The position numbers were made by a program, and so were the translations under genes. A stretch of DNA of 63,686 bases, filler included, from Collodictyon triciliatum (lineage: Eukaryota): NCBI GenBank assembly GCA_043381765.1. It is 8 parts of 8 records of this genome, joined end to end, with 100 filler letters (N's around TTAATTAATTAA, not from the genome) between each part and the next. Parts side by side here need not be neighbours in the genome. Positions count along the whole stretch, not along the records: positions 26,522 to 35,232 come from JBHJMP010003316.1; 7 more parts are not named here. The stretch is one strand, 5' to 3'. Positions 3,001 through 32,000 of this stretch are shown piece by piece; the stretch's first letter is position 1, and each line of letters starts with the position of its first letter. The notes below the pieces were generated by a model. It ran no database searches. It saw only the letters and a program-made list of their open reading frames with translations, and was not told the DNA's origin.

Positions 3001-6000
3001 TTGGCTTTTTGGCGAGCAGAGATGAGTTCTTCCAGAATTCTCGGTAGAATACCCTTGCGGACATCCGATTTCACAAAATAGTCTAATGGGAGATGGAAAA
3101 GTTACAGACTTTCTGATTTCATGGGATAAACAGAATCCTAGTTATGGTTCTAAGGAAATTCAAAAAAAAATTGTTATCTAGATTCTTACTATGGCTATGA
3201 ATTTCAATGCATAAAAAAATAATGGGAATGCCATAATAAGAAGCATATTATAGTTTGGATTCGCAGCAGGATATTACAGAACCTCCACAAGGTGTTTTCA
3301 CATATTTATCACTATTCATTTTTTCGCGGTCCGCACTAGATAGTAATGTCGTGTAGCATAGGTTATGCGCCATCATAATTGATGGGTAAAGAGATGCAAA
3401 GTCTAGTGTCGCTATTGGGGTCTCAAAATAGCCTCTTTTAGGCTCAATCACGGTAGCTCCCTCAAATTTCTCATCAGAGGCTATAAATCAAGACATCATA
3501 CTTTATTTTAATAATATTCAATATAATTATCTTTATCAATAATAAAAAATTTTTTTAAAAAAAACGAGAAAATTCTCGATTTTTTTCATTTGCTAGTTTC
3601 AAAAAAATTAATTTGTTATGTACAATATATACGTTAAACGAGAAAAAAATTGGACATCAAGATTTATATTAGCCGTAGCAAATTGCACCTTTTGATCTCA
3701 CAGTGGGTATGATGATATTTTCGTGCAAACATTGCCTGTAGAGCTGACTGACCACCTTGATTTGCTGACCTCTGGTGAGTAAATAAGACATTGGAACACC
3801 AGTAACTCGAGCCATTTCAATGCTGTTGATGAGCGCCATAAGTTTGTCCATCAGCCTTTGGGGGAGGTATGCATCCTGATAGTATATATTACAAGAGTAC
3901 TGTATAAATATGGTGATTACAATTTATGATACATATGTTATTGTTGGCGAAAAACTCGATATTTCATACCTTAAGACAGTAAGTGGCCAACCGTTTTCTG
4001 GTATGAGCATCGCCATTAAACAAGTCTGCAATGATAGAATGATGGACATCTTCCTTTTGCTCACCCAAAAAGTGAGATGAAACGGCATTCAGTGAATACG
4101 AGCTCAATTTGTGCTCTCTTTGTATCACTGTATGGTGAGTAACTGGTGTAAATAACCAACTCATGTCAAGAATAAATATGATAACCCAGGAAGCAAACGG
4201 GGGAAGTTGGGGGTTAGTGGAGAAAGCTTAAGGAAGGGGGACTTTTCCGTTTCATACAATAGTATTTTATGCCATAAGATGTCCGTCATAATGTGAAAAA
4301 AAAAACCTTGAATCATATCAAACTGAACTCTACCATCAATATGTTCACTCAGTAAAGGAAAAGGTAGCTCTTTTTTTCCCTCCCTTTTTTTTTTTTTTTT
4401 TTTCCTTTTTCAAGGTTGGGTATGGTATGACGGGAAATATTCATATATAAAATTCATAAACCATTTCACTGAATGCAGCGAGCATTTCATATACATAAAT
4501 GATTCATTAGGATATTGATTGCTTTGCTCTCTCGGGTGCCATATGCTTTAGAGGAAAATGTAGTATTCTTCATTCTGGACCTAGTGGTACGAACTCGTCC
4601 AAGATATGGAAATTTCTTGACTTTTAGAGTGCTTGATCGATCCATCAAATAAGGAAGATCGAAATTGATGATGTTGTATCCGGTAATAATGTCCGGATCA
4701 GCCTTCGGATATAAAAATAAAATAGATGAATACGAAATATGCCCAATCGTCAATTCTTGAGCACTTTCTTAGTTTTGCATTCATTTTTTTCTGACTAAAT
4801 AAACTGCCAAGTTTTTTTTTCAGAAGAAAAAACCTTGACCAAGAAATGCCTCCATGCTTCTAGTAAATTTTCTTCCTTCTCAAAGGATAACACTTGCGCT
4901 CCAGGAATATTAGCGCATGATTTCAGCGTAAATATATTCTTGACAATTGGTGTATCTTGGCCTGTTTGGGTTGAATGGAGACATGTCAATAGAAGTTGTA
5001 TCATATTTGTAAGTTGACAGAGTTGCATAATTTCTGTACCAGTGTTATCGTGATATTTAATCCTCGAAAAAAATGTGTAACCTTGAATGGTGACCATGTT
5101 GGCGATTTGTATAACAGGGTCTTGACTTGGGTCGGGAAAATGCCCTTTCTTGGCGCAACACTCAATATCTAAATAAAGAAAAAGGAAATAAAGAGGAAAG
5201 AATCAAAGGCAATAGAGAAGGAAAAGTCAATTACAACAAGGTTGATATCTCGGAAATGAACACGTGACAGTTTTATATCATTCAAATTTACAGAAAGCCG
5301 GGATAATACAAAGCCTCGTGAAATAAATAAGTGGGAGAGCAGTATCCCAGAGTGAAATCGAATTGAAATGAACGTACCAAAGCTCAAAATGCGGAGAGGG
5401 GCAACATCGGACCATTCATTTTCCGGTTTATGGCTTATTATCTTATCAAAACTATGGGGGAATTAGAGGGAGTTTGCAATAGGAGATGGCTAATCATGGT
5501 AATTATCATTTCACTTTATGAAAAGTGGACAGCTAATAACATTAATGACGGAATACTCGAAATGATTTGGTAATAAAATAGAGAAAGACAAGGCCGTACG
5601 AAATATCAACTTCGATTTGGGCGTGGCTTAGTTTGTCAGATGCAGCTCGCAGTGTGTACAATTTGGGGGGACATTCCACCCAGTTACCGCCAACAATATT
5701 TGTATCAATCATGAATCTCAGAACGTAAGCAATATTGGACTCGTACGTTGTGAATGAGCGGAAACCAACATCAGGATACGTCATACCAGACTCCAGCATA
5801 CGTAAAAGATATTAAGGGAGATACATGCGTATGTAAAATGACATAAAATACGCGGAACAAAATAATTTGGTCAACAGACAATCAATGCAAGAAGAGTTCA
5901 TGGATGTCAAAGAATCGATATTGATAATCAGATCAGAAGGATATCTCTGATAGTAGGGACCAGCATAGGAAGAGCAGAGCTTATACGAAAGAAGGCCGAT

Positions 6001-29136: not shown

Positions 29137-29256
29137 TTTTAACAACGCTACTTAAATCCAAGCAATCCAGAAAATCGCAACAAAGGAAGAAAGGAAGATC
29201 AAGAAAACCATCCAAACAGAGCACCGAGCCAAGCGCACTGCCAAACCAGGTTGCAA

Positions 29257-29817
29257 ATGAGTAAGAAAACGTACAGCCGGGAAGAACTTCTGGCACTCAG
29301 CCCCGAGGACTACCTGGAGGCTACAGTCTTTCCCGTCCTGCTTCCTGCACTCGAGAAGCTTCTTCACATCCACCAGCAACGCCAGTCACGAAGCCCAACA
29401 CCAGCAGGGATGCAAGCTGCAGTCACCTCAGCCCAGTCAAAATCACGCCCGCAAACACAGAATTACGCACAAGCACACGTCGGCTCGCGAGGCTCCTCCA
29501 ATTCACGGGGCTCTGCTGCCTTTGTGGACGAACTCCACTGGCTGGCAACATATCTCTACCAGAATGATCCGCAGGCCACAGAGCTCCGAGAGCTGCGCAG
29601 ACAGGTCAGACAGGACCCTGAACAGGCTGCTCGCAGTATTCAGAGCGCTTTCCGGGGTCATATGGGACGCAAGCAAGCTCGCTCCGAGAAGGACAGGAAG
29701 AAGAGATACGTCGAGGAAAAGTCCGCCGTGAAGATTCAGAGTATATACAGAGGCCATCTCGTTCGAAAGGGTGTGGATCAGGAGCGTAAGTTGCTGGAGA
29801 GTGGATTGACATCATAA
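29257..29817 (+). CDS. IQCK: IQCK-like protein (split RIIa/Dpy-30-like dimerisation motif plus two IQ motifs), intronless
   Basis: SPEDYLEATVFPVLLPALEKLL...LHWLATYLYQNDP, then IQSAFRGHMGR and IQSIYRGHLVR. Confidence 0.7.
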   Translation: MSKKTYSREELLALSPEDYLEATVFPVLLPALEKLLHIHQQRQSRSPTPAGMQAAVTSAQSKSRPQTQNYAQAHVGSRGSSNSRGSAAFVDELHWLATYLYQNDPQATELRELRRQVRQDPEQAARSIQSAFRGHMGRKQARSEKDRKKRYVEEKSAVKIQSIYRGHLVRKGVDQERKLLESGLTS

Positions 29818-30485: not shown

Positions 30486-32000
30486 ATGGCCGTGCCGACA
30501 GCAAAGACTTATCAGTTCAAACTTGTGCTTCTTGGAGAGACCGCGGTGGGAAAGTCGTCTCTAGTCTTGCGTTTTGTCAAGGGACAGTTCTTCGAGTTCC
30601 AGGAGTCGACTATTGGCGGTAAGTCTATTCACTCAGGTGTCCCTTTTTTCTATTATTTTGTCTTTTTTTTTTTTAATCAGTCTTTATCTCTTTCCTATTG
30701 TCACCTCTGGTTTCACACCCGCATTCGCAGGGCAGTTTTGGTTGCTACATTACACTTGTGATAGTTATATTATGGTGGCACAAATTATATTGTAATCATT
30801 CTTCTTTCTTTTCTTTCTTTTTTTTTTTTTGCCGTAGCCGCCTTTTTGACACAAACTGTTGCCTTAAATGACGCTACTGTCAAGTTTGAAATATGGGACA
30901 CAGCAGGACAAGAAAATACCAGTCTTTTGGAGCGATTTTTTTAAAACACATTTAATTTTTTTTTTCAAAAAAAACGTTCTCTTTTAATTCCCATCATATT
31001 TCTTGAATGATATTTGGTTTTCTTTTATCATGTTATCATAGATTAAATGACGGGTTTCTCTTTTCACTTGTAATACCTTTCTTTCAATCTCCTCCCCATT
31101 CCTTTTGGACTGGTCATCAACAAACCATCATCGAATATTATTTCATGTACTTTCGAAATATACGGTACCACAGTCTCGCTCCCATGTATTATCGCGGTGC
31201 AGCAGCGGCTGTCATTGTATTCGACATCACAAGCAAGGTTTTCTCAAAAACTTAAAGCTTTATATTGAAACCAAGAACATTTACTCTTCGTTCGCATGCC
31301 GTTTGTACCCTCTTTTTTTTAAAAAATAATAATATGTATGATGATAGGATTCTTTTGCTCGTGCCAAATCATGGGTCAAAGAACTTCAAAGGCAAGGAAG
31401 TTCAAATATCGTAATTATGCTCGCAGGAAATAAGTCGGATTTGGCAGATAAGCGGAAAGTTGATGCTGAGGTAGATTATGTGAAACTTATAATACTTTTG
31501 CCGTAATTTTTTTTTTTTTTTTGCGATACAAACATGTCGTGCCTTGAATGTTGTTCCGAGTTCTTAGTGCGAATGGTCGTTTGTTATCAAAAGTAGTCAT
31601 TATGCTACTTGCATTACTATTCCCTTAATACCTATTATCGTCTGTACATTGATAGGAAGCACAGCTATACGCCGAAGAAAATGGCATATCTTACATGGAA
31701 ACATCTGCCAAAACCGCATCAAATGTGAACGAGATGTTTGTCACGATAGGTCTCGATTTAGATTGCAACAATTATTGATCGAGTAAATCAACGTAAAGTC
31801 GGTAGAATGACTTTTTTTTTTCTGCCTCCTCCCTTTCATATGTTTCGAAGGGATGCTTAATAAACTCGACAATACTTGTAGCCCGAAAGCTACCCAAAAC
31901 CGCTGCTGGGAAGCCTGCTGGCACAACAGGAAGCCAAAGCACCATCGATCTCAAAAACACCAAAGATCCAGCCGCGCCAACTAATTCCTGCAGCTGCTAA
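30486..32000 (+). CDS. RAB5: Rab5 GTPase, 6 exons, complete
   Basis: [66 protein letters not shown]-terminal CSC. Confidence 0.97.
30916..31163 (+). other. Atypical AT-AC intron in Rab5, phase 1
   Basis: GAA A|ATACCAGTC...GAAATATAC|GG TAC rebuilds GQERYH; no GT-AG pair does. Confidence 0.8.

Follow-up and report, generated by a model that had tools for sequence, protein, structure and literature searches.

AT-AC introns with an invariant ATACCAG donor in Rab5 paralogs and other genes of Collodictyon triciliatum

The window, i.e. the whole stretch of 63,686 nt of Collodictyon triciliatum DNA analysed here, consists of chained contig pieces, one of which (G000:C3316) carries an intact gene for a Rab5 protein of 206 amino acids at positions 30486..32000 on the plus strand. 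The gene was delimited by spliced alignment to the transcript-derived protein P0241 of Diphylleia rotans (206 amino acids, 177 of 207 alignment columns identical) and by a Pfam Ras match on exon 4. Six coding exons (30486-30618, 30838-30915, 31164-31237, 31348-31470, 31656-31749 and 31882-32000) make up an intact reading frame; four of the introns between them have GT-AG ends and the remaining one, at 30916-31163, is of the AT-AC type. Just upstream of the Rab5 gene (29143-29817, plus strand) lies an open frame of 224 codons with two IQ motifs and a weak match to Dpy-30.

The AT-AC intron comprises 248 nt (first bases ATACCAGTCTTT, last bases TTCGAAATATAC), interrupts the frame in phase 1 and occupies a position common to the Rab5 genes of other eukaryotes. 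Exon 2 (30838..30915, plus strand) ends with CAA GAA A, encoding WDTAGQE and the first base of R, and exon 3 (31164..31237, plus strand) begins with GG TAC CAC. Few signals in eukaryotic genes are as rigid as the donor consensus of minor introns, RTATCCTT; the Rab5 donor ATACCAGT departs from it at +4, +6 and +7. The variant motif ATACCAGTCT occupies 30916..30925 (plus strand), and its bases +1 to +7, ATACCAG, are invariant at all 11 sites found. The original prediction of an AT-AC intron lacking both U12 and U2 consensus in an otherwise intact gene, with no canonical branch box before the AC, agrees with the DNA: the 206-amino-acid frame is intact and the best match of the intron to TTCCTTAAC is 6 of 9 positions, the background level of GT-AG introns. 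The intactness of the gene, its conservation and the protein of the relative suggest that the intron is spliced. A second Rab5 isoform of D. rotans, P0121, has an ORF that begins at the first Met beyond the AT-AC site, which would fit intron retention upstream.

The junction selected by the spliced alignment to P0241 is exactly 30915/31164. It rebuilds WDTAGQERY, as had been claimed, but it is not the only one to do so, since registers -1 (30915/31162) and -2 (30914/31161) also give ERY in the window copy. The AT-AC register is preferred because the slid registers would replace a basic residue (K) by Q in three of the nine paralogs described below. Most copies also contain a GT at +7/+8; its use as a donor with the same acceptor would add six bases and thus two residues, absent in all 78 homologs covering the site, every one of which reads QERY there (the other 42 of 120 homologs do not cover it). 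The best model restricted to GT/GC-AG introns (GC at 30932, AG at 31173) breaks switch II and scores 768 versus 812 for the AT-AC model. The donor is identical on nine separate contigs, at odds with the suspicion that a T had been lost from it by an assembly error, and the gene is intact. Although the AT-AC register is derived from DNA and protein comparison, we regard a different junction (a slid register, the GT donor at +7 or a GC-AG pair), or an unspliced or mis-assembled copy, as very improbable.

Among the 21 matches to the exon-2 peptide in the same genome nine have CAAGAAA|ATACCAG, and all nine have an AC end. The last seven bases of exon 2 (CAAGAAA) are identical in these nine intron-bearing paralogs, the proteins of which share 35-99% identity. 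Among the intron bodies, only those of the recent pair L052/L053 can be aligned clearly; five further pairs exceed 30 shuffles by 1-3 score points. AT...AC ends, in the register deduced from DNA, are present in all ten complete ATACCAG introns found.

A search of metagenomes for WDTAGQE with a subsequent AT start yielded 65 loci. In 24 of them, many redundant and judged by eye to represent about 11 distinct genes, a Rab5-type gene is interrupted where the intron at 30916 stands; nearly all of the remaining 41 are uninterrupted frames. The donors of the 24 loci are ATATCCTT in 15 cases, which stand for only a few different genes, ATATCCGCT in two (both with a CCTTGAC branch site), ATAAGT or ATACGT in five and ATACTATTT in two, and an AC acceptor was located in 21. 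ATACCAG was found in none of the 65 loci. Since the same position is interrupted in 24 metagenome loci, mostly with ATATCCTT, the Rab5 site is probably an old minor-intron position, at which some other lineages appear to have acquired U2-type donors. The further donor types ATATCCGCT, ATACTATTT, ATACGT and ATAAGT (L091, L109, L120, L121, L074, L115, L130 and L133) occur in Rab5 introns of other eukaryotes that keep AT-AC ends wherever the acceptor was seen, and the donor variants at this site provide a natural series for the study of minor-to-major conversion. Two Rab5-related paralogs of C. triciliatum, L060 and L169 (G000:C6584 and C1182), carry, one base further downstream than the AT-AC site, a phase-2 intron with GT-AG ends, possibly by a slide plus conversion to the major type. 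The metagenome scan also brought up about 38 low-GC, intron-free small-GTPase frames (L072-L136) with WDTAGQEN(R/K)GG...DAYLKGADG, perhaps genes of giant viruses.

ATACCAG is also used outside the Rab5 family. A spliced aligner, run on Rab loci regardless of motif, detected in a gene that we take to be Rab23-like (L167) an unrelated phase-2 AT-AC intron of 330 nt (YKKT|IGVDF) starting with ATACCAGCTC. A motif search found ATACCAGTCT exactly at an exon end of VPS26C (GK|LP in the protein of the relative), which counts as a probable third site only, because its acceptor falls in an N gap. Introns of the ATACCAGTCT type thus appear to form a class rather than a lone intron, comprising nine Rab5 paralogs, Rab23 and probably VPS26C. 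The evidence for a minor-type position conserved in other eukaryotes comes from the Rab5 site. DSCR3/VPS26C, RAB23 and RAB32 are absent from the human minor-intron list in the supplement of PMC10810330, in which the controls XRCC5 and RABL2A are present. No Rab5 row was found in the supplement of PMC2426677, and searches of the supplements of PMC6717393, PMC7507305 and PMC6865273 were blank and, lacking a positive control, uninformative.

Genome-wide, ATACCAGTCT occurs 106 times versus 112 for the control, and this lack of excess indicates a small class that has undergone no mass expansion. The 99 of 106 sites that were inspected include five Rab5-type donors and the one of VPS26C. BORCS8, an ABC transporter, an LRR gene and L227 were considered as further members and rejected, their motifs being coding or ordinary. 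Eight further ATACCAGTCT candidates had no Pfam support, and short exons without Pfam matches could hide more members. NHE genes were examined for AT-AC introns, and all introns among those listed were GT-AG.

The original prediction had allowed for birth of the intron by a local duplication or insertion copying neighbouring exon sequence. In the window copy the donor ATACCAGTCT does resemble the start of the next exon, TACCACAGTCT, as stated there, but the likeness is lacking in the paralogs L056, L065 and L068 as well as in Rab23 and VPS26C, all of which have the same donor. Tests for duplication or mobile-element birth (new position, related bodies, terminal repeats) revealed instead an old position, common to other eukaryotes, and bodies that are unrelated and unalignable. 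The shared position and the paralog comparison had thus already largely refuted such an origin, to which we give hardly any credence.

Donors and 3' ends of the ATACCAG introns were compared with those of 90 GT-AG introns from Rab loci of the same genome. Alignments scoring below 180 (including L163, L164 and L168) were excluded from the donor, branch-site, YYG and energy counts, and the AT-AC introns called in L164 and L168 seem to be artefacts of the alignment. The GT-AG donors have C at +4 in 7%, C at +5 in 13%, A at +6 in 14% and G at +7 in 18% of cases, and none of the 90 has CCAG at +4 to +7; with each base rare and the combination missing, ATACCAG does not amount to a major-type donor whose first base is A. 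Matches to the canonical branch box (TTCCTTAAC / TTCCTTRAC) reach at best 5-6 of 9 positions in all ten variant introns, i.e. the GT-AG background. All ten complete variant introns carry YYG with its G at -9 to -11. Only 8 of the 90 GT-AG introns do so, and slid windows give a mean of 1.4 of 10. In the Rab5 intron of the window it is TCG at 31153..31155 (plus strand, G at -9), a candidate short branch site; an A stands two bases past the G in seven of ten copies. The pattern having been noticed only after the fact, sets of eight GT-AG tails were drawn at random as a control, with the three close Rab5 copies counted once; none of 1000 such sets shared a pattern as rare as that of the eight variant introns. 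YYG is not exclusive to the ATACCAG class, since two of seven introns with canonical donors (L171 and L239) have it in the same window.

In the non-conventional introns of Euglenids the intron ends pair with each other. Such pairing was considered and rejected for the variant introns, as a donor complement exceeding shuffles was seen in one of ten copies; in six of ten a YCG stands opposite the fixed A+6. The sequence GACTGGT at 31108..31114 (plus strand), the complement of donor positions +3 to +9, is likewise present in one of ten copies only and is therefore probably due to chance.

U2-type AT-AC introns form a class with ATAAGT-like donors. The variant introns resemble them in the AT-AC ends and the missing U12 branch box, and differ in having no G at +5 and no match to the major donor profile. 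One might suppose that the major (U2) spliceosome, or a hybrid one, has taken over the Rab5 intron with its AT-AC ends in a genome whose major donors are lax: the GT-AG donors of this genome are weak beyond GT, the branch box is missing, and U2-type donors with AT-AC ends do stand at the Rab5 site elsewhere (L074, L115, L130 and L133). The introns converted in this way, however, use ATAAGT or ATACGT with G at +5, whereas the bases of ATACCAG are rare at +4, +5, +6 and +7 of the GT-AG donors in this genome; U1 is canonical, and a 7-mer held constant at unrelated sites is not what lax reading would lead one to expect. The U2-spliced AT-AC intron entertained in the original prediction is accordingly an unlikely one.

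Canonical minor introns occur in the same assembly. Six AT-AC introns with the donor ATATCCT were found, two in Rab1-like genes (L170 and L171), two in Rab32-like genes (L238 and L239) and two in a gene that we take to be POLD1. The latter, both on the minus strand, lie at 5802..5944 on another contig piece of the window (donor ATATCCTT, branch site CCCTTAAT) and at 4343..4515 (donor ATATCCTA, branch site TTCCTTTAC). The introns of L171 and L238 have a weak branch box despite a canonical donor. A further candidate, with ATATCCTTT and with CTCTTGAT near the AC, was noticed at 8149-8326 of L289 on the contig that carries U6atac (G000:C2465). In another Rab32-like gene (L163, 590-805) an apparent AT-AA intron (ATATCCA; donor ATATCCACC, branch site TTCTTTAAC) sits where two paralogs have canonical AT-AC introns. 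The fixation of ATACCAG at 11 of 11 sites, together with the coexisting canonical donors, points to two fixed donor classes and not to relaxation, so the 'relaxed' minor spliceosome proposed earlier is not supported. The variant and canonical classes sort by gene family, and no contig with both donor classes was confirmed. A mixed assembly, with the two classes coming from different organisms, was considered and left no compositional sign: the tetranucleotide correlation between variant and canonical contigs is 0.70, compared with 0.73 and 0.68 within the groups and 0.18-0.50 for short outgroups.

Searches with Rfam models found one U11 (55.3 bits), one U12 (72.1 bits) and one U6atac (75.7 bits) over the cut-off, and a U4atac candidate of 47.4 bits (cut-off 53, E 1.7e-5) that is probably genuine. 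The duplex of the latter with U6atac has a computed energy of -27.0 kcal/mol, the mean of shuffled sequences (n=300) being -17.1; one shuffle reached -27.1, so the duplex gives mild support only for function. The 5' end of U11 matches the consensus and the branch arm of U12, GUAAGGAA, is the Rfam consensus. U6atac has the box GCCGA instead of AAGGA; the positions at which it differs from the Rfam consensus lie opposite +6, +7 and +8 in what we take to be the usual pairing register. Because the variant donor carries purines at +6 and +7, G+7 can pair with C13 and Y+8 with G12; the ATATCCGCT donors of L091 and L109 would gain the same pairs.

Of the two snRNAs in which it had been suggested to seek compensatory changes, U11 thus proved canonical and U6atac a variant known from the literature (PMC2396436, available part). 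According to that part, U6atac of the CC type occurs widely and operates with canonical donors in other organisms, and for this reason it is not a private compensation. The computed pairing energy with U11 is -0.6 kcal/mol for the variant and -4.1 for the canonical donor, ATACCAG being among the weakest of the 16 CC-NN-UC variants. With U6atac it is 0.4 for the variant, 1.1 for the canonical and -1.9 kcal/mol for the Rab23 donor; G at +6 would give much stronger pairing (-5.8), but the base fixed there is A. The variant 3' ends pair with the U12 arm at -2.5 to -6.4 kcal/mol, no better than the GT-AG median of -4.1. Tandem A-G pairs that would let canonical U11 bind ATACCAGT were considered and are not supported by nearest-neighbour energies. 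We do not file the Rab5 intron as a canonical U12 member, because its donor, its branch region and its pairing with U11 and U12 all fall short of that type; we infer that it works like a U12-type intron.

Rfam and pattern searches of the assembly (14,576 contigs, with N gaps), in which Rfam scored 40-50 of several thousand candidates, found no second U11, U12 or U6atac. One of six exact matches to the U6atac core is a U6atac, and one of 14 matches to a U11 loop-plus-Sm pattern is the known U11, the other 13 being without snRNA match. A weak U6atac match in L008 (1329-1458; 25.2 bits, E 0.01), with an AG-type box GAAAGGAGAGAAG and no intact AGC triad, is either due to chance or a decayed copy. 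There are three U1 copies, two with normal 5' ends and one slightly decayed; this third copy (L236, 1501-1662, minus strand) has disrupted stems, differs at one position of the end that binds the donor and is probably a pseudogene.

AT-AC ends and C at +5 are minor-type features and count for the minor spliceosome. We consider it likely that the Rab5 intron and its class carry a second signal set spliced by a minor spliceosome in some form, a version with variant snRNAs included; two sorts of minor intron may thus be recognised in one cell. In this lineage the signals of the ancient U12-type AT-AC intron of the Rab5 family would have shifted to another fixed set, consisting of the donor ATACCAG and of YYG 9-11 nt before the AC, a set used also in Rab23 and probably in VPS26C beside the ATATCCTT introns. 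Whether the single minor spliceosome found (U11, U12, U4atac and CC-type U6atac) removes the class in the manner outlined next is, in our estimate, an even bet. YYG would mark a short, close-in branch site; on activation C+5 would pair with G15 of U6atac, G+7 with C13 and Y+8 with G12, while C+4, A+6 and C+9 would face A16, C14 and A11 as A-C oppositions. First recognition would lean on proteins of the U11-48K type and on the U12 side, because U11 pairs weakly with the variant donor. The limited pairing potential of U11 and the placement of SNRNP48 and ZMAT5 beside the donor, described in the available portion of a study of the U11 snRNP structure (10.1101/2023.12.22.573053), leave room for such protein reading. 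Against this explanation stand the common ancestor of nine of the eleven ATACCAG sites and the U2-type donors (ATAAGT or ATACGT) at the same Rab5 site in five metagenome loci.

The class could instead have readers of its own, namely a variant U11 and/or U12 (perhaps also U6atac) with a CUGG-type donor arm and a branch arm fitted to YYG, which would constitute a parallel minor spliceosome missing from the assembly or missed in it. Both ends of the class differ from the canonical introns that exist beside it, and the snRNAs detected do not account for the donor bases that are fixed; the fragmentary assembly and the share of candidates scored by Rfam give such genes room to hide, and U12 of Physarum has co-evolved with a close-in TTTGA motif (bioRxiv 10.1101/2020.10.12.336362, available part). 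The single U11, U12 and over-cut-off U6atac, the U6atac-core and U11-pattern matches that yielded no additional snRNA, the normal or near-normal 5' ends of the three U1 copies and the small size of the class all weigh against it, and we hold this arrangement to be doubtful. The same doubt attaches to its corollary, two minor splicing codes side by side, the ATACCAG/YYG class having variant U11/U12 (or U6atac) RNAs as readers of its own, so that a single nucleus would effectively harbour a third spliceosome specificity.

The ATACCAG introns can be set against known systems. With canonical U12 AT-AC introns (RTATCCTT, TTCCTTRAC) the variant introns share the AT-AC ends, A+3, C+5, the conserved position, a 3' signal at a fixed short distance and a genome with U11, U12, U6atac and a probable U4atac. 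They differ in C+4, A+6 and G+7, in having no branch box above background and in forming a fixed second motif beside canonical introns in one genome. The transformed minor introns of Physarum polycephalum, as far as the accessible part of the report goes (Larue, Elias and Roy, bioRxiv 10.1101/2020.10.12.336362), were first seen in GTPase genes, number about 20,000, keep a near-canonical donor and have the classic branch box replaced by TTTGA about 10 nt from the acceptor, with a changed U12 arm; this branch site is presented there as the first case of a joint change of signal and snRNA. Compared with that account, the C. triciliatum class likewise occurs in GTPase genes and has a short G-containing motif near the acceptor (YYG in 10 of 10, not exact TTTGA), whereas the donor is altered, U12 has kept its canonical form, members are few and canonical introns have survived.

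The CC-variant U6atac with the GCCGA box is reported from Acanthamoeba, Physarum, oomycetes, cnidarians and moss (Davila Lopez et al., PMC2396436); in the available text only donors that pair poorly with this box were found, which is called hard to explain. The same box is present here, and ATACCAG puts G+7 opposite C13 and a purine at +6, so ATACCAG introns offer natural substrates for asking what the CC-type box described in that text pairs with. The consulted parts of PMC10639083, PMC11347168 and PMC2846911 deal with non-canonical ends and minor-like introns and contain no second fixed donor. No description of a second fixed AT-AC donor class was found in the literature searched, mostly outside subscription papers and bioRxiv supplements; this analysis adds the fixation in nine paralogs, the use of the donor at unrelated sites and the 3' signal that the introns have in common. 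If essential trafficking genes do carry a second fixed donor, either U11 pairing does not exhaust the rules by which the minor spliceosome recognises donors, or there are variant snRNPs; intron classifiers based on consensus matrices would probably miss such introns.

Two other loci drew attention. In a Rab-like gene of L164 (1610-1720) the first intron, with GT-AG ends, does not restore the frame as assembled, which may reflect an error, a pseudogene or an odd junction. L014 (G000:C834) contains tRNA-like genes in tandem, which suggests a candidate organellar contig inside the assembly.
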